Below, one piece after another: positions 14,010-46,408 of a DNA stretch of 46,408 nt. Position numbers and translations under genes: made by a program. The notes beneath the pieces are model-generated. The model was given only the letters and a program-made list of their open reading frames with translations, had not been told where the DNA came from and did no database searches. Source of the DNA: Alphaproteobacteria bacterium (GTDB lineage Bacteria > Pseudomonadota > Alphaproteobacteria > JBFXJJ01). The stretch is from positions 1 to 46,408 of the forward strand of contig JBFXJJ010000017.1 of NCBI GenBank assembly GCA_050175015.1, written 5' to 3'. The stretch's first letter is position 1. Every line of letters starts with the position of its first letter.

Positions 14010-14032
14010 AACAGAAAACAAGGAGCTAAAAA

Positions 14033-16417: not shown

Positions 16418-16450
16418 AATCAATTAAAAAAAAGACAGGGTTTTTTATAA

Positions 16451-17539
16451 ATGCTTTATTATTTTTTATTTCCACTAGCCAATCAGTACAGTTTTTTTAA
16501 TATTTTTAAATATATAACTTTTAGAACTGGTTGTGCAGTTATGACGGCGCTAATTTTTGCCTTCTTAACTGGTCCTGTCATAATTAGAACCTTAAAGAAA
16601 TTTCAAGCAAACGGACAGCCTATAAGAGAAGATGGTCCTGAGTCCCATCTTTTGAAGAAGAAAGGAACTCCAACTATGGGCGGAATTATGATTCTGCTTG
16701 GAATTTCTATTTCTACTCTTCTTTGGGCAGATTTAAGCAATTCTTACGTTTGGATTGTCCTTGCCGTAACGCTTGGATATGGTGTCATTGGCTTTATTGA
16801 TGATTATATGAAAGTCATCAAACAAAATTCTAAGGGCATTTCAGCAAAACTAAAAATGGGCTTACAAATTTTAGTCGCATCAGTTGCAATCTTTTTTATC
16901 ATTGATGCGTCATCTGATGATATGGCAACTTGTCTTGCCATACCTTTTTTCAAAAATGTTTTAATTAAACTTGGCATCTTTTATATCCCCTTTGCTATCA
17001 TTGTTATGGTTGGTTCTTCAAACGCTGTTAATTTAACCGACGGTTTAGATGGACTTGCAATCGTCCCTGTTATGATTGCCGCCGCAGTGTTTATGATGAT
17101 TGCATACCTTGCAGGCAATATTGTTTTTGCCAACTACCTCCAAATTAATTACGTAGTTGGAGCTGGCGAACTCGCAGTTTTCTGCGGCGCTCTTGTCGGA
17201 GCAGCCTTAGGCTTTCTTTGGTATAATGCTCCTCCAGCATCAATCTTTATGGGCGACACAGGCTCTCTTGCCATCGGTGCGGCATTAGGTACAATAAGTG
17301 TCATCGCAAAACACGAATTAGTTTTGGCGATTGTCGGCGGACTTTTTGTTTTAGAAACCATCTCTGTTATTGTGCAGGTTGCTTCTTTCAAGTTAACAGG
17401 CAAGAGAGTTTTTAAAATGGCACCTCTTCATCACCATTTTGAAAAATTGGGCTGGGCAGAATCAACTGTTGTTATTCGTTTCTGGATTATAGCCATAATT
17501 TTGGGAATTGCAGGTCTCTCCACTTTAAAACTACGCTAA
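16451..17539 (+). CDS. mraY: Phospho-N-acetylmuramoyl-pentapeptide transferase
   Basis: [38 protein letters not shown]. Confidence 0.98.
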
Positions 17540-17558
17540 GCAAAAATAAGGTTAATAA

Positions 17559-18683
17559 ATGTCAAGAGCTTTTGCCCGAACTGATAATAGTATTTTAGGA
17601 AATTGGTGGTGGACAATCGATAAATGGATTTTTACATCTATTTTCATTCTAATCGGCATCGGCATTTTATTAAACTTTGCAGCCAGCCCAGCTGTTGCTA
17701 ATACTATTAACGTTAATATGTATCACTTCATCAAAAAACAGTTGTTTTTGATGCCTGTTGCCGTCCTTATTATTATCACCCTATCTCTGCAATCGCCTAA
17801 ATATATCCGTTATTTTTCGATTGGCGCTTTCTGCTTTTTTATGCTTTTGGTAATGCTTACCCCTTTTTTAGGAACCGAAATAAAAGGTGCGACAAGATGG
17901 ATTAGTCTTTTTGGTTTTTCTATTCAGCCTTCGGAATTTCTAAAACCATTATTTGTCGTTGTTTCTGCATCTTTATTTGCTCTGCCAGATAACGGCAAAA
18001 GAATTAACAGTCATATGATTGCAACGTTTCTATTCTTGTTTGTTATTTCTTTCTTGGTCATTCAGCCAGACATCGGAATGTCCTTAGTTATATCGACGGT
18101 ATGGGCTACGCAGTTTTTTATTGCGGGTCTGCCTATCATATGGGTCGTTGCCTTAGCTTGCTGCGGGGTTGTCGGCATTATTACTGCTTATTTCACATTG
18201 CAACACGTTCAACTTAGAATTGACCGTTTTCTTCACCCTGAAGGAGGACTTAGTTACCAAGTAAGACGCTCCTTGGAGGCTTTTTCTGATGGCGGACTTT
18301 TTGGAGTAGGTCCTGGTGAAGGTAAAGTTAAATTTCATTTACCAGATGCCCACACTGATTTTATTTTTGCGGTAGCAGGAGAAGAATTTGGCCTAATTTT
18401 CTGCCTCTGTATTGTTACCTTGTTTGCTATTGTCGTAATTAAAAGTTTTAATTTAATTATGAAAGAAAAAGATATGTTTATAATTCTTGCTGTAACTGGA
18501 TTAGCGGTTCAATTTGGTCTGCAAGCCTTAATAAATATGGCATCTTCGCTCCATTTGATGCCAACAAAAGGTATGACATTACCTTTTATTTCTTATGGAG
18601 GTTCCTCGTTGATTTCATCTTCAATCGGGATAGGAATGCTGCTTGGAGTAACCAGAAAAAGAATAGTACAAGGAACTAACTGA
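17559..18683 (+). CDS. ftsW: SEDS peptidoglycan glycosyltransferase FtsW
   Basis: GATRWI, QPSEFLKP, LPDAHTDFIFAVAGEEFG, LPFISYGGSS. Confidence 0.96.
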   Translation: MSRAFARTDNSILGNWWWTIDKWIFTSIFILIGIGILLNFAASPAVANTINVNMYHFIKKQLFLMPVAVLIIITLSLQSPKYIRYFSIGAFCFFMLLVMLTPFLGTEIKGATRWISLFGFSIQPSEFLKPLFVVVSASLFALPDNGKRINSHMIATFLFLFVISFLVIQPDIGMSLVISTVWATQFFIAGLPIIWVVALACCGVVGIITAYFTLQHVQLRIDRFLHPEGGLSYQVRRSLEAFSDGGLFGVGPGEGKVKFHLPDAHTDFIFAVAGEEFGLIFCLCIVTLFAIVVIKSFNLIMKEKDMFIILAVTGLAVQFGLQALINMASSLHLMPTKGMTLPFISYGGSSLISSSIGIGMLLGVTRKRIVQGTN

Positions 18684-18684
18684 C

Positions 18685-19788
18685 TTGAATTTAGAAAATG
18701 CCAATATCGTGATTACAACAGGGGGAACAGGAGGTCATATCTTTCCTGCTCTTTCTTTAGGTGTCCACCTAAAAAACCAAAAAGCAAGTGTTGTAATCGC
18801 TACCGACAAGAGGGGAATAAACTGGCTTCAAAGCCAAAACAATCCTTTAGAAACAATTTGCTTTACCTCATCCAGCCCTGCTTTAAGCGGCATTTTCAAT
18901 AAAATAAAAGCCCTAATTCTTATCCTTCAAGGAACTTTAAAAGCCTTATTATATGTTAAAAAAAATAAACCTGACTTGGTAATCGGTTTTGGAAGCTATG
19001 CCTCATTTCCAATAATGCTTGCCGCTTTATTTTTGAATATTCCCATAATGATGCACGAGCAAAATGCGGTATTAGGCAAAACCAATCGTTTTTTTGCTAA
19101 GCGAGCTAAAATTCTTGCGTTATCTTTCGAAAACACGGCTTTAATTCCCACTGGAGTTAAAACCGTTTTTACAGGAATGCCCGTCAGAAATGCCATCGCT
19201 AAAATAAAGAGCGCTCCTCTGCAATTTGAAGATAACAGTTTTAAAATTCTGGTTACAGGCGGCAGTCAAGGCGCCAGTATTTTTAGCGACATTATTCCCC
19301 AAGCAATTAATGCTCTGCCTGACGATTTGAGAACACAAATTGAAGTTGTTCAGCAATGCCGTGAAAGTGAAATCTCAAAAGTTACCGAAGGTTATCAAAA
19401 TCAAATTAAAAATTTTAGAATCGCCAGCTTCTTTAATGATATGCCAAATGAATTAAAAAGCTGTAATCTTGTTATATGCCGAGCAGGTTCTTCTACTATT
19501 GCAGAACTTGCTACCGTTCAAAGACCGGCTATTTTAGTCCCTCTTCCCTATGCCGCAGACAATCATCAAGCAGCAAACGCTAGGGCTTTCTGCAAAAACA
19601 ACGGGGGCTGGTTTTTTGAGCAAAAAGATTTTTCGGTTGAAACCCTTTGCCAAAAACTAACAGAATTAATAAAAAATGCAGATATTTTAGTTAAAATGGC
19701 ACAAAATATTAAAAATAGTGCTAATATAGAAGCCGTAAAAAATTTAGAAAAAATTGTTAACGACATAATCACCAAAAAAGAATTTTAA
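18685..19788 (+). CDS. murG: Lipid I N-acetylglucosaminyltransferase
   Basis: GGTGGHIFPA, HEQN, GGSQGA, RAGSSTIAE, HQAANA; TTG start. Confidence 0.96.
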   Translation: MNLENANIVITTGGTGGHIFPALSLGVHLKNQKASVVIATDKRGINWLQSQNNPLETICFTSSSPALSGIFNKIKALILILQGTLKALLYVKKNKPDLVIGFGSYASFPIMLAALFLNIPIMMHEQNAVLGKTNRFFAKRAKILALSFENTALIPTGVKTVFTGMPVRNAIAKIKSAPLQFEDNSFKILVTGGSQGASIFSDIIPQAINALPDDLRTQIEVVQQCRESEISKVTEGYQNQIKNFRIASFFNDMPNELKSCNLVICRAGSSTIAELATVQRPAILVPLPYAADNHQAANARAFCKNNGGWFFEQKDFSVETLCQKLTELIKNADILVKMAQNIKNSANIEAVKNLEKIVNDIITKKEF

Positions 19789-19792
19789 AGCT

Positions 19793-21205
19793 ATGAATTT
19801 TAAGCAGTTAGATATCGGAGTTATCCATTTTGTCGGTATTGGCGGTATTGGTATGAGCGGTATTGCCGAAATTATGCATAATATGGGATACAAAGTTCAA
19901 GGGTCAGATGTTTCCCGCAACAACAATGTGATAAGACTTGAAAAGCTCGGTATTAAAATTTTTATCGAACAAACCGCTGATAATATTAAAGATGCTGAAA
20001 TTTTAGTTATATCTTCTGCAATAAAAGATGATAACCCTGAAGTAATTGCAGCCCGCAAAAAATTGATTCCAATATTAGGCAGAGCCGATATGCTAGCTGA
20101 ACTTATGCGCCTAAAAGCATCAGTTGCTATCGCTGGAACTCACGGCAAAACAACGACAACATCTCTTGTTGCTGCCCTCTTTGATAGAGCTGGTTTAGAT
20201 CCGACGATTGTAAATGGCGGCATTATTAATTCTTTTGCTTCCAACGCCAGACTCGGTTCTGGAAATTGGCTTATTGCCGAAGCCGATGAATCTGACGGCA
20301 GTTTTACTAAACTCCCTGCAACGATTGCAGTTGTTACCAATATAGATCCTGAACATATGGATTTTTACGGTGATTTTGATAACCTTAAGAGTGCTTTCAC
20401 CTCTTTTATCAAAAACGTACCCCTGCACGGATTTGCCTGCCTTTGCATTGACCACCCTGTGGTTCAATCACTAATTCCAGAAATGTCAGAACATAGAATT
20501 ATAACTTATGGTTTCAGCCCTCAAGCAAACGTTAGAGCCATTGATGTTGAACAAACCTCTAAAGGCAGCACCTACAATATTATTATTAGTGATAACAACA
20601 GTGAAAACAGTCTGTTTTTAAGAGACGTCTTCCTGCCAATTCCAGGGAAACATAATGTTTTAAACTCTCTTGCCGCCATTGCTATTGCTCATAAGCTCGA
20701 TTTTGATATGAAGCTTGTAAAAGATGCCCTCTCAAAGTTTTCTGGGGTTAAAAGACGCTTTACCAAAACAGGCGAAACTAACGGCATTTCAATTATTGAC
20801 GATTATGGTCATCACCCGACAGAAATTATGGCAACATTAAAAGCTGCAAGAAGTGTTACCGAAAATAAAGTGATTGCTGTATGGCAGCCTCACCGTTACT
20901 CGAGGGTAAAAAATCTTTTTGATGATTTTTGCAAATGTTTCAATGATGCCGACACCGTTATCATAACCGACATTTACAAAGCTGGAGAAACTGAAACCTT
21001 TAATCTTAGCAAACACGAACTAGCAAAAGGACTTACGGCTCACGGACATCGCAATGTTATAGTGTTAGAAGATGAGAATAATTTAGCTAAAATAATCAAT
21101 GAAAACGCCCAAAAAGGTGACTTTGTTATCTGTCTTGGGGCTGGAAGTATTACTTATCTTGCAGAAAAACTGCCTCAACAAATTGAAGATTTATCAAAAA
21201 ATTAA
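19793..21205 (+). CDS. murC: UDP-N-acetylmuramate--L-alanine ligase
   Basis: GIGGIGMSGIA, GTHGKTTTTS, EADESDGSF, DDYGHHPTEI, QPHRYSR. Confidence 0.98.
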   Translation: MNFKQLDIGVIHFVGIGGIGMSGIAEIMHNMGYKVQGSDVSRNNNVIRLEKLGIKIFIEQTADNIKDAEILVISSAIKDDNPEVIAARKKLIPILGRADMLAELMRLKASVAIAGTHGKTTTTSLVAALFDRAGLDPTIVNGGIINSFASNARLGSGNWLIAEADESDGSFTKLPATIAVVTNIDPEHMDFYGDFDNLKSAFTSFIKNVPLHGFACLCIDHPVVQSLIPEMSEHRIITYGFSPQANVRAIDVEQTSKGSTYNIIISDNNSENSLFLRDVFLPIPGKHNVLNSLAAIAIAHKLDFDMKLVKDALSKFSGVKRRFTKTGETNGISIIDDYGHHPTEIMATLKAARSVTENKVIAVWQPHRYSRVKNLFDDFCKCFNDADTVIITDIYKAGETETFNLSKHELAKGLTAHGHRNVIVLEDENNLAKIINENAQKGDFVICLGAGSITYLAEKLPQQIEDLSKN

Positions 21206-21231
21206 AAAATAAAAAACAAAGAGAAAAATAA

Positions 21232-22182
21232 ATGTCACTTTTTAGAATCAGAGGAACTAAATTAATTGATTTGCTACCTAAAACCAAAGGCAGCCTAATC
21301 GAAAGTGCCCCTTTGAGCGACTTAACTTGGTTCGGTGTTGGGGGCCCTGCCGAAGTTATGTTTCGTCCTTTTGATGAAAATGACCTTATTAATTTTTTAA
21401 AAAACAAACCTCGCAATATTGCGGTCACCGTTATCGGTGTTGGTTCTAATATCTTGATTAGAGATGGAGGCGTGCCAGGAGTAGTCCTGAGGCTTGGAAC
21501 CCCATTCACTAAACATCAAATAAATGGTGATACAATCAAATGCGGCGCCTCGGCTCTTAACATAAACATAGCTAAAGAGGCTATGAAAAACGGCATTGCA
21601 GGATTAGAGTTTTTATCAGGAATACCTGGCACAATCGGCGGTTCTTTAAAAATGAATGCTGGCGCATTTAACAAAGAAATCAAAGATATCTTAGTATCAG
21701 TAACAATAATTGATTCTACAGGAAAAAAACACGAACTAGGCGTAGACGATATAGGTTTTGCATATCGAAAATGCCTTGTTCCTAACGATTGGATTTTTAG
21801 TTCTGCGGTATTAAGAGGTTATAAAGAAAATCCTGATATAATTGCTACGAAGATGCAGGAATATCGGAAAAAAAGAGAAGAAACCCAGCCTATTGGTATG
21901 AGAACTGGTGGTTCGACATTTAAAAACCCAGAAGGTCTTAAGGCTTGGAAGCTGATTGATAAAGCCGGTTGCCGAGGTCTTAGACACGGAGGAGCTATTA
22001 TTTCCGAGAAACACTGCAACTTTATTATTAATACTGGAGGAGCGACAGCTCTTGATATCGAAGAGCTTGGCGAAGAAGTTAGGAAAAGAGTAAAGGCTGT
22101 TAATTTCATTGAATTAGAATGGGAAATAAGACGTATTGGAGTTAAAAATCCTAAAGACAGCAGCTTTGGAGGAATGCGATGA
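21232..22182 (+). CDS. murB: UDP-N-acetylenolpyruvoylglucosamine reductase
   Basis: GGPAE, GVGSNIL, GIPGTIGG, MNAGA, GGSTFKNP, HCNFIIN. Confidence 0.97.
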   Translation: MSLFRIRGTKLIDLLPKTKGSLIESAPLSDLTWFGVGGPAEVMFRPFDENDLINFLKNKPRNIAVTVIGVGSNILIRDGGVPGVVLRLGTPFTKHQINGDTIKCGASALNINIAKEAMKNGIAGLEFLSGIPGTIGGSLKMNAGAFNKEIKDILVSVTIIDSTGKKHELGVDDIGFAYRKCLVPNDWIFSSAVLRGYKENPDIIATKMQEYRKKREETQPIGMRTGGSTFKNPEGLKAWKLIDKAGCRGLRHGGAIISEKHCNFIINTGGATALDIEELGEEVRKRVKAVNFIELEWEIRRIGVKNPKDSSFGGMR

Positions 22183-23030
22183 CCGAAAAACCTTTTAGGA
22201 GGGCTACTGATATAAACCTTCCTTTAAAGCTCATTCTTAACAGGCTGATAGGCATTGCCCTATTCTTAAGTGCAGCTTTTTTAACAGGCAGTCTTACTTG
22301 GGTTATAAAGTCAGGATATATTGAAGCTTTTTCTACTAAAACCATTGAAACTACTAAAGATTTTTCTCAAAAAGCAGGCTTTAAGCTAGATGAGGTATTG
22401 GTACAAGGCCGAAGACGGACCGATCCTGCGGTTTTTTTACGGACAGTTGCTCTAAAAAGAGGAACGCCAATTATGTCGATTGATATAATTGCCTTAAAAG
22501 ACCGTGTCGAGACAATGCCTTGGGTTAATAAAGCAATTGTTGAACGCAAGCTGCCCAATATTATCCATATTGTACTTGAAGAAAGAGAACCGATTGCTCT
22601 TTGGCAAAATGATGGGAAATTTATGCCAATCGATACTAACGGCAATGTTATCAATGTCAAAATTGACCGCCTCACCTACCTGCCGATTGTGGTTGGCGAA
22701 AATGCTCCAGCTCAAACCGCAGAGCTTCTAAATGAATTAAAAATTGAACCCGAGCTAAAAGAAAGAGTAAAGGCTGCTATTCTGGTAGGGGATAGAAGAT
22801 GGAATATTATGCTTGATGATATAGATAAGGGGATATCAATAAAACTTCCAGAAGAAAATGCTGATAAAGCTTGGTCTCGCTTGGCTAAACTAGACAAACA
22901 GCAACAGATTCTTAAACGCAAACTAACAATGATAGATTTAAGACTGCCAGATAAAATGATTGTAAAATTCTCTGGCGATGTTAAAGACATCAATTTTGAT
23001 GATGAAACTAAAAAAGGACGGCGTACTTAA
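22179..23030 (+). CDS. ftsQ: Cell division protein FtsQ
   Basis: TM segment, POTRA region (PWV...VERKLP), ALWQ, RRWN, IDLRLPDK; overlaps the murB stop (ATGA). Confidence 0.93.
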   Translation: MTEKPFRRATDINLPLKLILNRLIGIALFLSAAFLTGSLTWVIKSGYIEAFSTKTIETTKDFSQKAGFKLDEVLVQGRRRTDPAVFLRTVALKRGTPIMSIDIIALKDRVETMPWVNKAIVERKLPNIIHIVLEEREPIALWQNDGKFMPIDTNGNVINVKIDRLTYLPIVVGENAPAQTAELLNELKIEPELKERVKAAILVGDRRWNIMLDDIDKGISIKLPEENADKAWSRLAKLDKQQQILKRKLTMIDLRLPDKMIVKFSGDVKDINFDDETKKGRRT

Positions 23031-23058
23031 AAAAACGCTAAATTGAAAGAAACAAAAC

Positions 23059-24309
23059 TTGGCAAGAAACGAAATAAAAAACGGCATAATAGCTGCCCTT
23101 GATATTGGAAGCTCTAAGGTTTGCTGCGCAATAGCTCAAATCGATAAAAACTTTAATGCCAAAATTATTGGTTTCGGACACAACCTGTCAAAAGGTATAA
23201 AAAACGGCATTATCGTTGATATGGCAGAAGCTAAAAATGCCATAGCTCGAGCCGTCGAAGCTGCTGAATATGTTGCTGGTCTCAGAGTTGATTCGGTCTT
23301 TGTTAATATTTCCAGTTCTAGATTGCAATCTTCTATCATCAAAGCTGAAATGTCTTTGAGCAATAAGCCGATTGCCGAAAATGATATAAAAAAACTGGTT
23401 GAAAAAGGTCTTTATCGTCTTGATATTGGCGATTCTGAACTTTTGCACTGTATTCCAATCGGCTATTCAATTGACGGCGAAGATGCCGTTGCCGATCCTC
23501 GTGGTATGTATGGCTCATCTTTAGGAGTAAATATTCATACAATTACACACCCGTCAGCTCCGATTAAAAATTTAGAAACGGTTATTGAGAGCTGCCATTT
23601 AGATATTGCTATGAAAATCGCCACGCCTTATGCTTCTGGACTTGCAACCTTGGTTGATGACGAGAAAGAGCTGGGCGGAACGATTATTGACATTGGAAGC
23701 GGCTTAACCAACATTGCAGTCTTTAATAACGGTCATATAGTTCACGCTGGAAGTATTGCGGTCGGCGGTCAGAATATAACCCAAGATTTAGCTTGGGGTT
23801 TAACAACTTCTTTATCACAAGCAGAAAGGTTAAAAACCCTTTATGGCGGAGCAATATCATCTCCGAAAGACAATCGTGAAATGATAAAAATATTTCCAAT
23901 TGGTGAGGAAGATGAAACCTTAGTTAAAAATTTAGCGAAATCTGAAATCAACAATATCATCATTCCCCGTATAGAAGAAACAATGGAACTTGTTTTGCTT
24001 CATTTAAAAGAAAATAATTTATACGATATACCGAGCCATCGTGTTGTCTTAACTGGTGGCTGCAGTTTGATTCAGGGAATTAGAGAAAAAGCGTCATATA
24101 TTTTAAACCGCCAAGTCAGAATTGGCAATGTTATTGACATTACAGGTATGCCTAAAAATGCCAAAAGCCCAGAATTTGCAACCTGTATCGGCCTATTAAA
24201 TTTCGCCATAAAATCAAATATGATAAAACCAGAAAAACCGTCAGTATCGTTTCACAGTGTAACAAGTCCTTTTGAAAAATTAGGACAATGGCTTTTTCAA
24301 AGCAGTTAA
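23059..24309 (+). CDS. ftsA: Cell division protein FtsA
   Basis: ALDIGSSKV, IDIGSGLT, AERLKTLYG, VVLTGG, and a C-terminal amphipathic helix. Confidence 0.96.
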   Translation: MARNEIKNGIIAALDIGSSKVCCAIAQIDKNFNAKIIGFGHNLSKGIKNGIIVDMAEAKNAIARAVEAAEYVAGLRVDSVFVNISSSRLQSSIIKAEMSLSNKPIAENDIKKLVEKGLYRLDIGDSELLHCIPIGYSIDGEDAVADPRGMYGSSLGVNIHTITHPSAPIKNLETVIESCHLDIAMKIATPYASGLATLVDDEKELGGTIIDIGSGLTNIAVFNNGHIVHAGSIAVGGQNITQDLAWGLTTSLSQAERLKTLYGGAISSPKDNREMIKIFPIGEEDETLVKNLAKSEINNIIIPRIEETMELVLLHLKENNLYDIPSHRVVLTGGCSLIQGIREKASYILNRQVRIGNVIDITGMPKNAKSPEFATCIGLLNFAIKSNMIKPEKPSVSFHSVTSPFEKLGQWLFQSS

Positions 24310-24423
24310 ATTTAATAAAAAATGAATCTTGTTAAGATATTTTTTACTTTAAACATTATAAAACTATAGTTAATGCCATTTTTAGGCAAATTTAAGGATT
24401 AAAAAAAGATTGGAGAACTCCCT

Positions 24424-26184
24424 ATGATAAAAATTAGCGTTCCAGAGAATATCACCACTCAAATAACTCCCAAAATTACAGTAATAGGCGTTGGCGGTGC
24501 TGGCGGTAACGCTGTTAACAATATGATTGCTTCAAAACTTGAAGGTGTAGAATTCATTGTGGCAAATACTGATGCTCAAGCGCTTTCTTTAGCCAAAACA
24601 GATAGAAGAATTCAACTTGGAGCACAGACAACACAAGGATTGGGAGCGGGAGCAAAACCTGAAATTGGCAAAGAAGCTGCTGTTGAAGCTATTGATGAGA
24701 TTATTGAAGAAATTCAAGGCTCTAATATGGTATTCATTACTGCTGGAATGGGTGGCGGAACGGGTACTGGTGCGGCTCCTGTCATTGCCAAAGCAGCTAA
24801 AGAACATAATATTCTAACCGTAGGTGTTATTACCAAACCTTTCCAATTTGAAGGCATAAGGCGTATGGCCCTTGCTGAGGCAGGCATTGAAGAACTTGCT
24901 ATGCACGTTGACACCTTAATCGTTATACCTAATCAAAATTTGTTCCGTGTTGCCAACGAGAAAACAACCTTTGCTGATGCTTTTAAAATGGCCGATGATG
25001 TTTTGCACGCTGGCATTAGAAGCGTTACAGATCTTATGATTATGCCAGGTTTAATCAATCTTGATTTTGCTGACGTCAGGACTGTAATGGCAGAAATGGG
25101 TAAAGCTATGATGGGAACTGGCGAAGCCGAAGGTGAAGGCAGAGCAATTAAAGCTGCGGAAATGGCTATAGCTAATCCTCTGCTTGATGATACTTCTATG
25201 GCTGGCGCTAAGGGTGTTCTTATTAACATTACTGGCGGAATGGACTTAACACTATTTGAAGTTGATGAAGCTGCCAATAGAATTCGTGATGAGGTTGACC
25301 CTGATGCCAATATCATATTTGGTTCTTGTTTTGATGAAAACTTGCAAGGCAAGATGAGAGTTTCCGTTGTTGCAACAGGAATTAACACCGAAAAAAAGTC
25401 TGAGGATTCATCTCCTTACGCTTTTAAAGTAGACGGGGCAGCAAGAAGTGCAAGCAGTTCTAAAGCTAGCGAAAAGACTGACCGTCCAGTTGGCGTTAAC
25501 TCAATAAACAATATCTTTGCCGTAAAAACTATGCCGCAAGTAACAATCGCTCCAGAAAAGCCGATTGAAAACGCATCTAATGTTTTGCCTGTTATGCCCA
25601 AAGCATCAAGTGCTTTTGCGGTCATACGAAATGGCGGCCAAGAAAACAATATATCGAATCACAAAGATGACAATGTCTTTAAGCCCAAAATTTTGTCAGT
25701 AGATGAAGAAAAAAGCATTGAGCCTCCTGCAAGTATTGCAGAACCGGAACGCCACGAGCCTAACTTGGATATTTCCCATTCTGTAGAAACAACCAATGTT
25801 CAAGCAAAAGAAAAAACGGCATCTGAGGTAAAACCTACTCAGGGAGAATTCTTCATTCCTCCTGCTCCAGAGGTACCAGCTCACCGCAGCCACCTTGCTT
25901 ACCGTGAAAACATTGAAGCGAATAAAGATGATCATACGCAAGAAAGTCATAAACACGAAGAGCACGATGACGAAAAAGATCGCTCAAGGAATATCTTCGA
26001 AAGAGTTACTGGTCTTTCAATTATTAGAAAAGCACGTAATGAAGAGCTTGCCAAACAGGAAGCCCAGCTTAATCATCAACATCAAGAAGGCAGTCTTACG
26101 GTTTCAACCGAACCTAAAACAACGTCTTCATTTAACAGTGACGATTTAGAAATACCATCTTTCTTAAGAAGAAAATCGACTTAA
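24424..26184 (+). CDS. ftsZ: Cell division protein FtsZ (long alphaproteobacterial linker)
   Basis: GGGTGTG signature, INLDFADV, C-terminal [11 protein letters not shown]. Confidence 0.99.
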
Positions 26185-40266: not shown

Positions 40267-43230
40267 ATGATGACATTTAAAAGAAACAGCATAAACGACA
40301 GCGAACGTGGCAGCTTGCTAATTGAAGCTATTGCGATGCTTGGTTTAATATCTATGGTATCTCCTATGCTTTTCAGGCAAACAAATGAACGCCAAAATGA
40401 ATTAGCTGATATTGCTGTGGCTAATCAAACCAGAGTTTTAACTCAAGCGGTTAACGATTTTATGAGGTCTAACCAAACAACGCTTGTCGGCGGAATAATT
40501 CCTGATAACAGCTCTAAAGACTTTTACCTTTATCAATGTATTAATAAAACGGACGGCTCTATTTCTGATTACTCAGGAACCCCAGATGCAAACTTAATGT
40601 GTATGGCGGACTACCTGCCTGAAGGTATTGTTATCGATGCGGGGACAGGAACTTCGGCTCCAAACAGTTTAATTAAATCCTATAAAGTAAGTGTCCGTAA
40701 CGACAACAACAAACTAACAGGAATGCTTGGCGGTGTCGGACGACTTGGCACAGGAAGTGATCCTAACGGCCTTCCTAGAATAAGAGCTTCTCGTATTGCA
40801 TCTATGATTGGCGCTCAAGGAGGATATAGCGTTGAATTAAGCGGCAATACGGCTATTGCTGGAGCTCAGGGAACTTGGCAGATTGATGATGTTTCCAAAT
40901 TTTTTGATACCTCAAGTTTTGACCCGGGACAAGGTAGCATATTTTCAACCACATCATTTGAGCCAACCCAAGAATACACCGATTTTCTCCACCGCGAATT
41001 TAATGGCAACCCTTTGCTTAATACGATGCAAACGACAATGTTCTTCGACCCAGGCTGGGGCATTCAGATGGACGGCGGCAGTATTACCAGTGATAATGCT
41101 GGTGGAACCATTAGATTTGGAGACCCTGCAAGCGGCGGCAACGGCTTCTTACTTGACAGCAGTGTTGGAGCAACCACAACCCTCACAACCTCTGACGGTA
41201 TTACCGCCCGCACAGGAGATATTGCAGCTTTAGCTGGCAATATTGATGCTAGCAATGACGTTATTGCAGGAAACGATGTTGAAGCCACTTTTGATGTTAT
41301 TGCCAATCGAGATGTTCTAGCCGATAACAATGTAAGCGCTGACCAAGATGTGCTTGCTGGGAATAACGTTGACGCAAGTGTTGATGTTCATGCTGGCAAT
41401 GAAGTTGTTGCTGGAAGTGACATCAGATCAACAGGCGGCAATGTTATATCTGAGACCGCCAATGTTGAGGCGGGACTTGATGTTATTGCTGGAAGAGATG
41501 TTGATGCAGGAAGAGATGTTATTGCTCAAGAAAGTATTATTTCAAAAACAGGCGACATTGAAGCCCAAATGGGTAATGTCAGCGCTGCGATTGATGTCAC
41601 TGCAGGCAATGATGTTGACGCTGGTAATGATGTTTATGCTGGCAATGATGTTAATGCTACTTATGATGTTAATGCTGGCAGAGACGTTTCTGCTGGCGAA
41701 AATGTTTTTGCTGAAACTGGCGATATTGAATCACGAATGGGCAATGTCTACGCTAACTTAGATGTTATATCCGATACAGGAAACGTGGAAGCAACCTTGG
41801 GTGATGTCTATGCTGGTGCAAATGTTGTTGCGTCTGATAATGTTATATCCAAGAATGGGGATATTTATACCGAGACAGGAGATATTGAATCGGCTAACGA
41901 TATTTACGCAGCAAATAATATCACCGCCGGGCAAGATGTTATCGCAACAAGAAACGTCGAAGTTGGTCAAGATCTCATACTTAATGGTGATTTTCTAACA
42001 AAAAATGATATTAAGGCCGAAGGTTCTATCGGTGTTTATACTGATATTAACGACACTGATGCCAGAATCGTTATGTATCGAAATGGAGACATAGGTATGC
42101 TTAAAGTACGCAATGGCTCAACCGATCGCATAACTCTTAACGGCGAAGGCTTAGTAAATGTAGGCAGCGACTGGACTGATATGTGGGACTTTGCATCCAA
42201 AGATGCAGATAAAGGTTTAATAACTTCTAACTATATTCAATCGGAAGAAATATATGGCAACAAAGCTTATTTAGAAACCATAGAAACTGCGAATATCGCT
42301 TTAACCCTTTTGGATTCATCTGGTAATCCAATCTTAAGCGGCGGCTATCCTGTGTACTCAGGATTTATCGAAGGTCAGAGCTTTATGTTCGAAAATACGG
42401 ATTCAGGCGGCACAGAGCGAATCCTCAACTTTACTTTGGACGATACCTTTAACGAATTATCTTTTATCCGAGATCAACACGAAACAAGTATTCATACTGA
42501 AGGACACTCCATTTATTTAGATCATACTGGCGACGGCAATTTAGCGGCGGTTATTGGTAGTTATCCAACATCTGACACGGCTGTAAACGGCAGAGGTCTT
42601 TTGCTCTTTGATGAAGTCGGGGTTGAAAAAATCGTGCTTGATAGTGCAACTGGCGATATGATTAATTTTGGCGGCAACTTTTATCTAGCTAATGATAACG
42701 GCGTCAGCTTAACCGAACTTTTGAACCAAAGTAATTCTGGCGTTGCTGTTTTGCGTAATATTGATACTTATGGAGCCTTATATGCAACAGCAAGACTTGC
42801 TCCTGATAGTTTGGTTGGCTATGAAGAAGGCATTGACGAGGCTAATGTTAGATGGAAGTTGTATGCGGATAGTGACTATTCTGGTTCATTAGAATTAGTT
42901 TCTGCCATCAACACCGATACAAACATTTCGATGAATGCTCGACAATTCTATGATACCGAATTGATTGAAGACTATGAAATTACAATCACAGGCAGCTTAG
43001 GTTCAACCAAACTTAATTCAAACGCCTTAACTATCGTAAGAGACAGCGACAGTCGTGAAATTATTGCTGACCTGTTAGAAGGTTTCAGCATTGCCAATGA
43101 AACTGACCGTATCTTTCAAGTTGATATGGAAGGAAATGTTCACCTAGCTGGTTGTTTGCGTGATATGAACGGCAATATAATCCAAGCTGATGTTAATGGC
43201 GTTTTAACAGACATTTGCGGCGGTTTATAA
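40267..43230 (+). CDS. Type IV pilin-like adhesin: PilV/shufflon-N-like N-terminus plus beta-solenoid repeat stalk
   Basis: RBS AGGAGG; prepilin site ERG|SLLIE with Glu at +5; AVANQTRVLTQAVNDF; IASMIGAQGGY...GAQGTW; about 40 DVxAGN-type repeats. Confidence 0.75.
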   Translation: MMTFKRNSINDSERGSLLIEAIAMLGLISMVSPMLFRQTNERQNELADIAVANQTRVLTQAVNDFMRSNQTTLVGGIIPDNSSKDFYLYQCINKTDGSISDYSGTPDANLMCMADYLPEGIVIDAGTGTSAPNSLIKSYKVSVRNDNNKLTGMLGGVGRLGTGSDPNGLPRIRASRIASMIGAQGGYSVELSGNTAIAGAQGTWQIDDVSKFFDTSSFDPGQGSIFSTTSFEPTQEYTDFLHREFNGNPLLNTMQTTMFFDPGWGIQMDGGSITSDNAGGTIRFGDPASGGNGFLLDSSVGATTTLTTSDGITARTGDIAALAGNIDASNDVIAGNDVEATFDVIANRDVLADNNVSADQDVLAGNNVDASVDVHAGNEVVAGSDIRSTGGNVISETANVEAGLDVIAGRDVDAGRDVIAQESIISKTGDIEAQMGNVSAAIDVTAGNDVDAGNDVYAGNDVNATYDVNAGRDVSAGENVFAETGDIESRMGNVYANLDVISDTGNVEATLGDVYAGANVVASDNVISKNGDIYTETGDIESANDIYAANNITAGQDVIATRNVEVGQDLILNGDFLTKNDIKAEGSIGVYTDINDTDARIVMYRNGDIGMLKVRNGSTDRITLNGEGLVNVGSDWTDMWDFASKDADKGLITSNYIQSEEIYGNKAYLETIETANIALTLLDSSGNPILSGGYPVYSGFIEGQSFMFENTDSGGTERILNFTLDDTFNELSFIRDQHETSIHTEGHSIYLDHTGDGNLAAVIGSYPTSDTAVNGRGLLLFDEVGVEKIVLDSATGDMINFGGNFYLANDNGVSLTELLNQSNSGVAVLRNIDTYGALYATARLAPDSLVGYEEGIDEANVRWKLYADSDYSGSLELVSAINTDTNISMNARQFYDTELIEDYEITITGSLGSTKLNSNALTIVRDSDSREIIADLLEGFSIANETDRIFQVDMEGNVHLAGCLRDMNGNIIQADVNGVLTDICGGL
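41236..41970 (+). repeat. Intragenic 18/21-bp degenerate tandem repeats encoding hexa- and heptapeptides
   Basis: For example GCAGGCAATGATGTTGAC GCTGGTAATGATGTTTAT GCTGGCAATGATGTTAAT from 41602. Confidence 0.85.
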
Positions 43231-43251
43231 ACTTATCTTAGATTATGTTTT

Positions 43252-43289
43252 ATGGGTACCTCTTAAATCTTAAGGGGTACCTATTTTTT
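43252..43289 (+). terminator. Intrinsic terminator after the pilin adhesin
   Basis: GGGTACCTCTTAA atc TTAAGGGGTACCT followed by ATTTTTT. Confidence 0.8.
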
Positions 43290-43695
43290 GTTTTTTAGCA
43301 CCTTCCCATAAAAAACTTTTATATAGATAACTCTATCAGAGCATATTTTATTTCATCAGAATGAATACATTTAAATGCCAGATGCTCTAAACAAAATATA
43401 AAAAAGACTCCACGTGGATTTTATTTATAATTTAACCATATATTTATAACATATTGAAAAAACATTGTTTTTTATACATGATCATTTTACTTACAATTTT
43501 ACGCAATAAATAGTTATTAATATCTATTTAGCAGTTTTTTTCTTTTTTGGCTTAAAGGCTGATTTAAAATCATATTTTAAAAAATATCAACCATAAATAG
43601 ATTTGATTTATAAAAGCAATTTAAGGGTTATATATTGTATTAAATACGCAACAAGACTCGAATGTATTGTTATAATAAAATAACAATAAAAAACA

Positions 43696-43806
43696 CTATT
43701 TTACATTTTTTAGTGTTATTAATACAGAACAGTTGTAACTGTTGTTAGGATATAACTGGAATATAATCAAAAACAAGAAACCAAACAAGTTATTTTTACT
43801 AAACAT
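43696..43806 (-). CDS. Inverted leader: RBS, ATG and signal peptide of the GLUG gene (dead-end 36-aa peptide in this orientation)
   Basis: GAAAGGG-N7-ATG; MFSKNNLFGFLFLIIFQLYPNN then SYNCSVLITLKNVK*. Confidence 0.75.
   Translation of the reverse strand: MFSKNNLFGFLFLIIFQLYPNNSYNCSVLITLKNVK
43736..43756 (-). repeat. Left inverted repeat of the invertible segment
   Basis: Minus strand GTTATATCCTAACAACAGTTA; 20/21 identical to 44310-44330. Confidence 0.9.
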
Positions 43807-43859
43807 GGTCTTGCCCTTTCATAAAATAATCAATTAAAAGCAAATTTTTATTTATCTTT

Positions 43860-43888
43860 ATTTTGCTACAGTTTCTGCGTGATTGCAA
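43860..43888 (-). promoter_or_regulatory. Candidate promoter inside the invertible segment
   Basis: TTGCAA-N17-CAAAAT on the minus strand, about 55 nt upstream of ATG 43806. Confidence 0.4.
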
Positions 43889-44129
43889 GAATAAAAAATG
43901 ATGCCAAATTGTAATTGTAAGGGAATTTTTTAGTTCAAATTTTATATTAAATTGTATTAAAACAAGCTCTTAATTGTGTTTTTGTTATCGTTTTTATGCC
44001 TAAAAACAAGCAAAATCTAAAAGCGTAACATTTTGAATTTATTGTGTATTTTTTTAAGGCATTTTTTTGGGTAACTTATGGGTAGCAGATTCATTTATAA
44101 AAAAACGGCAAAGCGAATCTATATTTATA

Positions 44130-44142
44130 TAACACATTGATA
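44130..44142 (-). promoter_or_regulatory. IHF-consensus site
   Basis: TAACACATTGATA is the reverse complement of TATCAA-TGTG-TTA, matching WATCAANNNNTTR. Confidence 0.45.
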
Positions 44143-44309
44143 AAACTATGTTTTTTATAAAATAATTAAGTTTTTTGGGTAACACATAGGTATCTTTTTT
44201 AGTTGTTTTTTGATTATAACTAAAAAATAAGTAAAATTTTATATGATTAACGCATTGTTTTAATTTTATATTTTTTATATTTGTGCGTACTAAAAACCCA
44301 TAAAAATGC

Positions 44310-44330
44310 GTTATATCCTAACAACGGTTA
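44310..44330 (+). repeat. Right inverted repeat of the invertible segment
   Basis: GTTATATCCTAACAACGGTTA, read L-Y-P-N-N-G in the frame of the GLUG ORF. Confidence 0.9.
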
Positions 44331-46408
44331 TTCTCAAACAGCCATTACAACCTGTTCAGAATTACAGGCGATAAATAACAACTTATCAGGCAGTTACTAT
44401 CTTGCTAATGATATCGATTGTAGTGATACCGTTAATTGGAACAGCGGTGCTGGTTTTGTACCGATTGGAAATAATGCCTCACCATTTACTGGTATATTTG
44501 ATGGAGCAAGACATTCCATAATCAATTTAATTGTTAACAAAGATGCTGATTATGTTGGGCTTTTTGGTATTGTTTCCAATGCGGTAATTTCCAATGTTTA
44601 TGTCTCAGGAAAAGTTACAGGAAAAGCCTATGTCGGAGGAATAATAGGATTAGCTAACAACACACTTATAAACAGAGTTTCATCAAATGTGAAGACAACA
44701 GGAACTAGTTCAGTTAACGGTTGTTCTGGAGCCATTGTTGGTTATTTAAATGATTCTTCAACTCTTTTGAATAGTTTTGCTTCCTCTAATGTTCAAGGAA
44801 CTTGGTATGTTGGCGGTTTAGTTGGAACCTCCAACAATTCAATTATTAGAAATAGTTATTCAGAAGGAGCAGTCTTATTTGGGACGAATTATGTTGGTGG
44901 CATTTTAGGTCAAGGAATTAATTCGAACATCACCTCCAGTTTTTCAACAAGTCAGGCATCAGCCAGCGTTTATGGAGCAGGTGGTATTGTTGGATATGCA
45001 AATGTTGTTGGAGTAAGTGAAAGTTATGCTACAGGGTTAATTAGTTCTCCAAGTTATGTTGGAGGTTTGATAGGATATATTGGTGGTGGTTCTTCTGCTC
45101 CTAACAGTTATTGGAATACTCAGACATCTGGGCAAAGCTCCAGTGCCGGCAATTTAGGAACTGGAAAAACAACAGCTGAGTTGCAAATGCAAAGCACCTT
45201 TTCTGGTTGGAACTTTGACAATGTTTGGAAAATGACGGAAGGAAGCTATCCTAAGCTTCGCAGCAGTATAGAAATATCAACTTGTGAGCAGCTGCAAAAC
45301 ATTAATAGTAATCTTTATGGCAGTTATTATCTAACTGGTGATATTGATTGCAGCGATACCGTTAATTGGAATGGTGGTGAAGGCTTTGTTCCGATTGGTA
45401 CCGAAACCAGCCCATTTTATGGCAACTTTGATGGTAATAGCTTTGAAATTACTAGTCTCTATATTAACCGACCTTCAACAGAACTTGTTGGTTTATTTGG
45501 CTTTGTAAAATATTCAACAATAGAAAACGTTGATTTGATTGAGGGCAATATTAGTGGTCGTAGCAATGTTGGCGGCTTAGTTGGAGCTATGGAATATTCT
45601 CATGTCGATAAAGTTTCTTTTTCAGGCTCTGTAATTGCAAGTAAAGGAACTGTTTATATAGCTGGAGGTGATGGTTGGAGCCATGCTGGTGGTTTAATTG
45701 GTTTTGCTGTTACCTATTCTAATATTTCTAATAGTTATTCAAAAGGCTCTGTTTATGCTACGGGAGATCTTGTAGGAGGTTTAGTTGGAGCTGTATCTAT
45801 GGGTTCATCTGTTTTTCGTAGTTATTCAGAAGCAACCGTAAGCGTAACTGGTTATAATACTTACGGAGGAGTTGGAGGACTAATAGGACACGTTAATTTT
45901 GGATATAATGCTCAAATAGTTGATAACTATGCTACAGGCAATGTTACAGGAGTTTATGCAGTTGGTGGTTTAATTGGTGATATTTGCTGTGGAACTCCTA
46001 GTATTATTAATTCTTACTTTGCAGGTTCGATTTCTGGAAATAGTGAAGTAGGAAGCTTTATTGGCAAGTCTAGGTTAGGTAATCTTACGGCTAATAATTG
46101 CTATTGGGATATTGAAACAACGAGCCAAGCTTCAAGTTGTGGAGGCAGTGTAGTTTGCAACGGCATAACAGGCCGAACAACGGCTCAAATGAAGACACAA
46201 AGCACGTATTCTAATTGGGATTTTACCGATGTTTGGTATTTACCTGCTGGCGAATATCCTAAACTTAAATGGCAGATACCAGTCTGCACAGGCTGTGCAG
46301 TTTTAGATGGTATGGTTTGTGTAGCGGGTGGTAGTTGTTCTGGTGAACACCCGACGTGTAATGTTACGGGCTGGGTTGGACTTTGCGAATGTTCATCTAG
46401 CACTTGCG
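44311..46408 (+). CDS. Large secreted or surface GLUG-repeat protein (two tandem beta-helix modules then a Cys-rich region); headless here and runs off the window end
   Basis: Translated by hand: frame 1 is open from 44251 to the end. ITTCSELQAI...YYLANDIDC...GFVPIG...FTGIFDG...VGLFG, many VGGLVG repeats, W.F..VW...YPKL twice. First in-frame ATG is at 45187. Confidence 0.9.

Follow-up and report, generated by a model that had tools for sequence, protein, structure and literature searches.

How can a large surface protein be made and exported from a gene that lacks both a start codon and a signal peptide? The question is raised by the right-hand end of a 46,408-nt contig (JBFXJJ010000017.1, here C17) from an alphaproteobacterial metagenome-assembled genome (MAG), where a long open reading frame (ORF) encoding a protein with the GLUG domain opens without any initiation signal, and where a pair of inverted repeats just upstream encloses, on the opposite strand, a short leader that has the missing parts. 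The window analysed is this entire contig, and C-labels (C1, C10, C17 and so on) denote contigs of the same MAG. We consider it very likely that the locus is an ON/OFF inversion switch operated by a tyrosine recombinase, in which the start and signal peptide of the surface protein are stored backwards, and that it belongs to a system of 14 such loci. The inversion at this locus, the promoter and the signal-peptide cleavage site are all things that we infer from sequence.

A surface-protein gene without a start

The GLUG frame has an in-frame stop at 44248-44250 and is open from 44251; its sole early start is a TTG at 44281, preceded by 20 nt that are all A/T and by no Shine-Dalgarno sequence, and its first ATG lies at 45187. 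The encoded protein matches the Pfam families Glug (PF07581, 50.8 bits against a cut-off of 20.5) and Peptidase_M26_N (PF05342, 35.9 bits against a cut-off of 27.7). Upstream, two 21-nt arms are complementary at 20 of 21 positions (95%) with 553 nt between them, and the 16-nt core of the arm occurs exactly twice in the window and not once in 100 dinucleotide shuffles, so that the pair is beyond chance. The parts of the locus are as follows.

43643-43735, unstranded: conserved non-gene flank with the small palindrome TATTGTTA-N-TAACAATA, a marker of cassette orientation
43696-43806, minus strand: leader ORF as assembled, with its ATG at 43806-43804, 36 codons long and crossing the left arm
43736-43756, unstranded: left (non-gene-side) arm, with the core TAACT-GTTGTTA-GGATA at 43736-43752 (outer half-site, 7-nt spacer, inner half-site) followed by four further repeat bases
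43757-44309, unstranded: putative invertible segment, 553 nt and A+T-rich, in which the longest overlapping ORF is 43 aa (listing minimum 25 aa)
43814-43820, minus strand: Shine-Dalgarno-like GAAAGGG, 7 nt 5' of the leader ATG
43860-43888, minus strand: candidate leader promoter TTGCAA-N17-CAAAAT, with its -35 at 43888-43883 and its -10 at 43865-43860
44310-44330, unstranded: right (gene-side) arm, with the core TATCC-TAACAAC-GGTTA at 44314-44330, coding Y-P-N-N-G-Y in the GLUG frame
44314-46407, plus strand: GLUG surface-protein ORF without its own start or signal peptide, exiting the contig end after 698 codons

The spacers of the two arms are exact reverse complements of each other, and on the leader strand the outer half-site of the left arm is AGTTA. 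The leader ORF comprises 18 codons for a basic n-region and a hydrophobic core (charge +1; top 10-residue Kyte-Doolittle mean 3.12), then Y-P-N-N from the arm and finally 14 non-conserved codons from the flank. Because L-Y-P-N-N is what both arms encode, whether in the leader frame or the gene frame, recombination within the repeat would yield an in-frame fusion. A first-pass annotation of the DNA had described the 21-bp inverted repeats, the start-less GLUG frame, the backwards leader GAAAGGG-N7-ATG(43806) that stops after 36 codons, and LYPNN in both arms in the frame of the GLUG gene; all of these were confirmed.

The palindrome in the non-gene flank is preceded by a T-run on the leader strand. 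It was considered as a canonical intrinsic terminator and rejected, as neither strand fits; it might bind a protein or halt leader transcripts.

Fourteen cassettes in one genome

In all, homologous cassettes stand at 14 loci on 10 contigs of the MAG, each laid out as two cores of the form TATCC-N7-GGTTA about 0.55-0.58 kb apart. A genome-wide search with the arm gave inverted pairs of like spacing on further contigs, and a six-frame motif search returned 12 GLUG paralogues, all of which start with [L/I]-Y-P-x-x-G-Y-[S/A]-Q-T-A-I-T, have stops just 5' and no start codon, and stay open for 545-902 codons. A reverse-complement partner arm lies 539-580 nt upstream in every one (12/12), with 0-6 mismatches per 21 nt, the six-mismatch pair being that of a degenerate locus on C4. 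A thirteenth cassette is found at C21:16221-16790, and a fourteenth is split over the starts of contigs C21 and C11. Median pairwise identity between cassettes is only about 54%, with the exception of C10 and C17, which share 93% over 742 nt. The window segment aligns with 11 paralogous segments in a 12-cassette alignment in which conserved islands are present, and the roughly 100-nt non-gene flank is conserved at six of the 14 loci (C10, C11, C13, C17, C27 and the C21 start, C21:127-218). With respect to orientation, the leader faces away from the gene in 13 of the 14 cassettes.

Several members of the set have peculiarities of their own. The cassette at C21:16221-16790 looks degenerate: its arms match and it has a spacer (TGATAAT), an 18-codon leader and two boxes (see below), together with a poor ribosome-binding site (RBS) and weak hydrophobicity. 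No surface-protein gene follows it; the next ORF, 180 nt on, is enzyme-like in appearance (unscanned against families), and 3.5-3.7 kb downstream are a gene for tRNA-Leu and one for a 354-aa integrase. The C4 cassette has an in-frame stop in its gene-side inner half-site; inversion would take this half-site away with the segment and put the leader-side half-site in its place. On C10, a third copy of the core with an identical spacer (TATCC-TAATAAC-GGTTA) lies on the minus strand at C10:80113-80129, 6.9 kb from the cassette, in a short gap between plus-strand ORFs of 730 and 325 aa, where it overlaps the RBS region of the second. This copy forms an inverted pair with the gene-side arm and a direct repeat with the other arm, so that a 7.4-kb inversion or a 6.9-kb deletion could result.

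Private spacers and shared half-sites

The half-sites TATCC and GGTTA (reverse complement TAACC) form an imperfect dyad around 7 nt. At all 13 complete loci this 7-nt spacer is identical on the locus's own two arms, and all 13 spacers are distinct; none of 156 non-partner pairs share a spacer, and none of 100000 permutations reproduced the full partner matching. Locus 14 likewise carries one spacer, TAATAAA, on both arms. The near-duplicates C10 and C17 are telling here, as their spacers differ by one base and each variant stands on both of its own arms, despite 93% identity. Tyrosine recombinases generally need identity in the overlap region (parts of PMC2817482), and since the overlap must match between partners, the spacer looks like such an overlap. 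The arrangement of inverted half-sites around an overlap of 6-8 bp that is identical in the partners is indeed that of a tyrosine-recombinase core site. As the spacer is private to each locus, a locus should recombine with itself alone. The outer half-sites differ by side, the non-gene one being AGTTA in 8/13 loci and the gene-side one GGTTA in 12/13, where it is also a Gly codon, a pattern consistent with half-sites that would stay in place.

The leader as coding sequence

In all 13 complete cassettes the distance from an ATG to the core is exactly 18 codons, in the frame of the gene, and the core codes Y-P-x-x-G-Y of leader and gene in one frame (13/13 loci), which places the predicted crossover in the coding region, as in the vsa/mba-type systems described below. 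The GAAAGGG-N7-ATG block recurs at 10 cassettes (at most three mismatches), and the promoter hexamer regions coincide with two conserved islands of the 12-cassette alignment, about 45 nt 5' of the RBS on the leader strand. In the same alignment the leader has no indels, though the neighbouring DNA is indel-rich. The first six residues keep a net charge of +1 to +3 across cassettes while differing in sequence, and the hydrophobic core is strong in the 12 GLUG-adjacent cassettes (best 10-residue Kyte-Doolittle mean 2.45-3.12). After joining, G would stand at -3 and S or A at -1 in 13/13, with +1 occupied by Q in the 12 GLUG cassettes and by K in the cassette that has no gene. The 12 GLUG-adjacent cassettes have the heuristic features (basic n-region, hydrophobic h-region of about 10 or more residues, small residues at -3 and -1) of a putative Sec signal peptide. 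As assembled, by comparison, the leader peptides run to 23-42 residues overall, and the part beyond the core is unconserved in sequence and length. Judged by this pattern, the leader is coding sequence under selection.

Homologues tell a similar story. In many of the best 120 relatives of the N-domain (P0010, P0037, P0064, P0080 and P0100 among them), the I-T-x-C-x-E-L-Q domain is immediately preceded by an ordinary signal peptide. The protein P0241 (3360 aa, 50% identical to the locus-14 protein) opens with a canonical signal peptide, M-F-N-K, a hydrophobic stretch and then S-P-N-V-S-Y-A, which leads straight into the shared Cys-rich domain, and its N-terminus is a contiguous version of the predicted inversion product. 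Others are reported by gene callers as start-less, truncated or internally started (P0001, P0049 and P0111, the last called from an internal Met).

A cassette in the opposite orientation

Locus 14 differs from the rest in what its flank adjoins. Near the start of contig C21, a segment end with the motif TAACATATTGAT, about 55 nt and an arm is joined to the conserved non-gene flank; elsewhere such a segment end adjoins the gene. In alignments, C21:27-127, comprising the box end of the segment and the arm, matches the gene-proximal ends of the C10 (E 3e-9) and C11 cassettes on their plus strand, and for C21:109-218 the match is to the left arms and flanks of C10, C13, C17, C27 and C11 on the minus strand (E 3e-28 to 4e-14). 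Since the box end, not the leader end, adjoins the conserved flank here, the cassette is flipped relative to the others. The partner arm, with the same unique spacer, begins at the first base of contig C11 and leads into a 1594-aa ORF starting Y-P-N-K-G-Y-S-Q. That C11 begins exactly where both orientations become identical is what would be expected of a branch in the assembly graph, and suggests one. Based on the flank-side junction and the shared unique spacer, we take locus 14 to be ON.

The 1594-aa protein has no Pfam or NCBIfam match, and it carries the family tail E-R-Y-x-R-I-K-R-K-[M/I]-N-R-I at its C-terminus. A representative protein search with it returned the genome's own protein, P0241 and one weak match, nothing else, and a search for shorter protein fragments carrying the ON form of the locus found none. 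The conserved basic tail, in full E-R-Y-x-R-I-K-R-K-[M/I]-N-R-I-x-x-S-A-Y-x-G, ends all complete family members, that is, the paralogues at C5:145471-148176, C5:170142-172136, C6:51258-53072, C13:8872-11547 and C23:2758-4992; the non-GLUG 1594-aa protein (C11:2-4783) and P0241, a homologue from outside this genome, have it as well. No Pfam family matches the tail, which may serve for anchoring or sorting.

Six other GLUG genes exit contig ends (C17:46407, C10:89575, C6:2, C11:88568, C27:2 and C23:2), and the breaks fall at identical residues in C10 and C17, and in C6, C11 and C27. With six genes broken in this way, the paralogue family is a main cause of assembly breaks.

Orientation in sequence data and relatives

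The first-pass annotation had proposed mapping reads to both orientations and comparing related genomes, and both checks could be carried out in part. One run, X1, a landfill metagenome available as contigs only at about 14x depth, contains the window locus (0.91 of sampled words, against at most 0.05 in three other runs); rare variants are dropped in such contigs. A 135-nt contig of X1 spans the left arm in the assembled orientation with 0 differences, at a depth of 13.4 compared with 14.4 in the flanking contig, and the assembled orientation alone was seen at the window locus. Because contigs of about 14x drop rare variants, this limits the ON form to a minority there, and a flipped minority is compatible with the data. 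One joint is listed, from 43830 to 44326, skipping 495 (one contig, with a shorter side of 28 letters); it is best read as a paralogous cassette aligned by its conserved ends only. Loose ends at 43650, 43794 and 44312 match, in a by-eye comparison, the C10, C23 and C6 cassettes in the assembled orientation. As for relatives, the 40 other genomes searched all belong merely to the same class, and one of the 40 gave a weak GLUG match that was not N-terminal. Scans for the box-pair pattern described in the next section returned 109 metagenome stretches and 29 genome stretches, unrelated matches.

Accessory motifs and a candidate recombinase

Inside the segment lie further conserved motifs, which in the window are the following.

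44069-44086, plus strand: box pair 1, GGGTAAC-N4-GGGTAGC, direct repeats with 11-bp phasing, a candidate arm-type recombinase site
44130-44142, minus strand: exact match to the integration host factor (IHF) consensus WATCAANNNNTTR, with near-matches at two other conserved positions starting at 44026 and 44248
44177-44194, plus strand: box pair 2, GGGTAAC-N4-AGGTATC, 108 nt after pair 1

Two GGGTARC pairs with 11-bp phasing, 108-112 nt apart, occur in each of the 12 GLUG cassettes. This two-pair pattern has 12 occurrences in the genome, all of them in GLUG cassettes and in constant orientation relative to the gene. The IHF consensus WATCAANNNNTTR has 18 exact matches in the 12 segments, on one strand and at three conserved positions, compared with 2.1 +/- 1.4 in total in shuffles, and three HU/IHF-family genes are present in the genome. 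Just two box pairs lie outside the cassettes, at C1:265048 and C1:265185; they precede a gene for a 424-aa tyrosine recombinase (C1:263738-265012) by 36 and 173 nt. This protein combines an Arm-DNA-bind_3 domain (PF13356, 49.7 bits against a cut-off of 27) with SAM-like and catalytic domains, and matches no NCBIfam family above cut-off. It is the best candidate among the recombinases and perhaps the invertase of the system, and we name it tentatively, on the basis of the shared motifs. Its neighbours are a XerD-type gene and a 372-aa ORF (unscanned against families), with no tRNA gene nearby, and a C4 paralogue that is 57% identical has no boxes.

Other recombinases were also considered. There are 17 Phage_integrase matches in about 15 genes of the genome, none adjoining a cassette. 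A serine invertase with a Fis enhancer was rejected, as the genome has no Resolvase-family match in a search that was positive in 12 of 14 named control genomes. A Piv/IS110 invertase was rejected as well, the one match (20 bits, below the 29-bit cut-off) lying within a 2367-aa ORF. Three 354-aa integrases were rejected, of which C21:20517 adjoins tRNA-Leu, as is typical of island integrases. Contig C39 (3878 nt) is mostly filled by two tandem Xer-like tyrosine recombinases of 317 and 332 aa (45% identical), with no cores or boxes near them.

A model of the switch and its rivals

In the proposed mechanism, the locus as assembled would be OFF, the promoter, RBS, ATG and first 18 Sec-type signal-peptide codons of the cassette facing away from the gene, and the gene itself beginning midway through the signal-peptide c-region with no initiation signal. 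A tyrosine recombinase would exchange strands inside the 7-bp spacer of the inverted cores and so flip the 0.55-kb segment, joining the leader in frame to G-Y-[S/A]-Q and the mature protein, with a likely signal-peptidase site after G-Y-S/A. The recombinase half-sites would double as the conserved Tyr-Pro and Gly-Tyr codons, with the spacer coding the two variable residues between them, and the private spacer would confine recombination to the two arms of its own locus. The GGGTARC boxes and IHF-like sites would serve as accessory sites, the boxes possibly as arm-type sites of the integrase. The first-pass annotation had proposed an inversion that moves promoter, RBS, ATG and signal-peptide start together, with its crossover in the c-region. 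That proposal is supported here, and by evidence new to it: the 14 recurrences, the co-variation of spacers, the preservation of leader length and frame at about 54% cassette identity, one cassette lying opposite on a conserved flank, and homologues with an ordinary signal peptide at the exact position.

A number of observations weigh against this interpretation. The ON junction of locus 14 (leader, arm, gene) and its leader end are absent from the assembly, and a strand-changing joint at the window locus is not listed in the contigs of the four runs. Thirteen of 14 cassettes share one orientation, which is compatible with a frozen arrangement. No close relatives are among the 40 other genomes searched, and none of the 138 scanned loci has a matched arm pair or a G-Y-S-Q-T-A-I-T-T-C-like motif, the pattern used being strict and its result implying no absence elsewhere. 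The relative P0005, from another metagenome, starts Y-P-K-Y-G-Y-A-Q without a signal peptide, and so looks OFF there too. The candidate leader promoter is weak by consensus and unlisted by the promoter scan, because only 8 of its 12 positions match (the scan, with 6 sites against 10.3 in shuffles, was uninformative), and the assignment of the recombinase has motif co-occurrence as its one basis.

Could the switches be fossils, the recombinase or its sites now inactive, the 12 GLUG genes permanently silent and the differences in orientation historical? The shared orientation of 13 of the 14 cassettes would suit such a history, as would the exclusively assembled orientation of the contigs at the window locus and the two degenerate-looking cassettes, C21:16221-16790 (no target gene, weakly hydrophobic leader) and C4 (in-frame stop). 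Unused 17-nt sites and 18-codon ORFs, however, would be expected to decay like the remaining segment, and instead spacers are perfectly paired at 13/13 loci and leaders are intact and in frame at about 54% cassette identity; moreover, the near-duplicates C10 and C17 carry a recent spacer change on both arms, and the GLUG ORFs are still open for 545-902 codons. We thus regard frozen invertons as unlikely. A count of 13 OFF and one apparently ON is what a coat switch working one locus at a time would be expected to leave in a consensus assembly, although we note that a frozen system would look alike. The start-less genes might alternatively form an archive, as in Anaplasma msp2 and Neisseria pilS, where silent donor genes convert into one expression site. 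The inverted repeats would then be incidental, and the conserved 5' (Y-P-x-x-G-Y-S-Q-T-A-I-T-T-C) and 3' (E-R-Y-x-R-I-K-R-K) ends would act as homology anchors for gene conversion into a single expression site. All 12 GLUG genes do lack starts, and the N- and C-terminal ends are common to the family, even to its non-GLUG 1594-aa member, whose locus is apparently expressed; but an archive leaves unexplained why each donor has its own RBS, ATG and in-frame 18-codon hydrophobic leader on the opposite strand, as well as the private spacers matched on both arms and the cassette flipped relative to its flank, and we consider it highly unlikely.

Expression of the gene as assembled, from TTG 44281 or internally, with another export route and the repeats bound by a DNA-looping regulator, is more far-fetched. 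In its favour, a TTG is present at 44281 in a frame open from 44251, and the GGGTARC boxes and several promoter-like hexamers point toward the gene. Yet that TTG has no Shine-Dalgarno and all 20 nt upstream are A/T, other paralogues have stops rather than conserved starts directly 5' of the arm, promoter-like matches are rarer than in shuffles (6 vs 10.3), and a looping regulator has no need of co-varying, locus-specific spacers. That the design is an assembly artefact or a chance repeat is hardly credible. The MAG is in 49 contigs and GLUG genes do break them, but no chance matches are expected for the 16-nt core, the design stands at 14 places on 10 contigs, the independent X1 assembly spans the left arm identically with 0 differences, and a 17-21-nt repeat is presumably too short for mis-joins at usual k-mer sizes.

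Returning to the inversion switch, the 14 cassettes might further constitute one coordinated coat switch. A domesticated lambda-Int-like integrase would build an intasome in each inverton, with GGGTARC arm sites and three IHF bends, and would also bind these GGGTARC repeats at its own promoter; private 7-bp addresses would be written in signal-peptide codons; and about one locus would be ON, that of the 1594-aa Cys-rich protein, with the 12 GLUG genes kept OFF in the sampled population, in a mutually exclusive, antigenic-variation-like programme of a free-living or host-associated environmental alphaproteobacterium. This extended picture is speculative, and we think it rather doubtful in its entirety.

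Comparison with known inversion systems

Several known systems share features with the locus. In E. coli fimS, the tyrosine recombinases FimB and FimE, which lack an arm-binding domain, invert a promoter with the assistance of IHF sites in or beside fimS. In Bacteroides, one trans-acting enzyme can serve many invertible promoters, and B. fragilis Mpi is a serine recombinase. Both resemble the present locus in that a promoter segment is inverted between short inverted repeats, but their elements are intergenic and leave the coding sequence intact, whereas here it is split. Phage lambda Int at attP carries out heterobivalent recombination with arm-type and IHF sites. The likeness to attP would extend to inverted half-sites around a 7-bp overlap, 11-bp-phased direct repeats with IHF-consensus sites between, and a candidate enzyme with an Arm-DNA-binding domain; lambda Int, however, integrates or excises an element, whereas here both cores lie inverted in one chromosome and the reaction would serve expression. 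The Bacteroides invertible promoters are also mentioned in a passage of PMC2268961.

The closest parallels come from mollicutes. An inversion inside an ORF that moves promoter, RBS and 5' coding sequence has been described in M. pulmonis vsa, and the like has been proposed for Ureaplasma mba/UU172 (passages of PMC3047005 and PMC2268961), so that the novelty claimed by the first-pass annotation was overstated. In vsa, with its tyrosine recombinase HvsR, the promoter, RBS and 5' coding part move together, as they would here (PMC3047005, PMC2268961). One vsa expression site, however, serves several silent genes of one locus and moves the first 714 nt of the coding region, and the products are mollicute lipoproteins; here each gene has a private cassette, over 10 contigs, with 18-22 leader codons and a spacer of its own, the leader lacks a lipobox cysteine and the host is alphaproteobacterial. 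The single expression module shared by silent genes that typifies vsa and mba is accordingly missing, each gene having its own leader cassette and spacer. Ureaplasma parvum mba/UU172 is similar in its 21-nt repeats, one inside the ORF just past the signal-peptide/anchor part and the other intergenic, and in forming in-frame chimeras (parts of PMC3047005). There, the inversion alternates two divergent neighbours that share an N-terminal module, whereas the present one would be ON/OFF per gene, with nothing expressed opposite, at 14 loci.

The M. penetrans mpl (P35) family consists of scattered paralogues, mostly with their own invertible element and gene-specific repeats, served by the recombinase MYPE2900 encoded elsewhere (sections of PMC2268961 and PMC3047005, citing Horino 2003 and 2009). 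A large scattered surface-protein family, small private elements and short repeats that differ by gene are all found here too, with 13 distinct spacers plus TAATAAA at the split locus. The mpl elements, as those sections present them, are invertible promoters beside genes. Here, by contrast, a split ORF has its start codon and signal-peptide core (start plus 18 codons) inside a roughly 0.55-kb element with extra conserved repeats, so that the promoter-only element with an intact ORF outside is not what we find. The system appears to combine the vsa/mba and mpl designs while failing one defining feature of each. What it apparently adds is a core written in signal-peptide codons, overlaps private to each locus and accessory motifs like those of lambda attP.

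Large surveys of invertons describe a 'partial intergenic' class (a section of PMC10028968). In term searches of the available text, 'signal peptide', 'N-terminus' and 'N-terminal' were absent from PMC10028968 and PMC9881135, and 'start codon' was absent from the former and occurred once in the latter, in a methods passage. One inverton filter requires repeats of at least 22 bp, and filters of this kind would miss a 17-21-nt site (methods text of PMC9881135). Our literature search found no report joining GLUG with phase variation in main texts, while supplementary tables may list similar loci, and no alphaproteobacterial analogue of the switch was found.

Genome and neighbourhood of the locus

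The host MAG comprises 49 contigs and 2.53 Mb at about 35% G+C, with a completeness of 99.4% and a contamination of 0.56%. Its FtsZ has best named matches in Rhodospirillales, Magnetospirillum, Novispirillum and Telmatospirillum at about 80% identity across the conserved half, with one match labelled Bacteroidota; this reading of the taxon takes best matches alone, and it fits the first-pass annotation's attribution to an alphaproteobacterium. FtsZ (586 aa) is the last of a same-strand run of ORFs at window 12291-26184 that resembles the dcw (mur/fts) cell-division cluster, FtsZ being the member that was checked.

Immediately upstream of the cassette, a 987-aa ORF (window 40267-43230, plus strand) has no Pfam or NCBIfam match; its N-terminus is prepilin-like by eye, and near its C-terminal end (42673-42700) a stretch resembles the G-x-Y-Y-L-A-N-D start of the GLUG N-domain. 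It is followed by one further feature.

43252-43294, plus strand: terminator-like hairpin and T-run after the 987-aa gene (terminator scan: 1 found vs 0.2 expected)

This hairpin argues against expression of the GLUG gene by upstream read-through. At 43318-43391, the summed contig depth in run X1 rises from 14 to 49, and two differing continuations exit at 43390 and 43391, a pattern suggestive of a short dispersed repeat in the intergenic DNA to the left of the cassette. An Rfam scan of 43200-44500 gave a single sub-threshold chance match and nothing more.

Implications

For genome annotation, genes of this kind are prone to being reported by gene callers as start-less, truncated or internally started. 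If the proposed switch is real, its site encoding would be economical, with half-sites that are Tyr-Pro and Gly-Tyr codons and an overlap that is an address, preventing 14 similar sites from scrambling the chromosome. An arm-binding integrase working with IHF sites as an invertase would be unusual among phase-variation systems. The hiding of a start codon and export signal by inversion, as in Mycoplasma and Ureaplasma, would also exist in Proteobacteria, in a form that is modular per gene and repeated 14 times in one genome.

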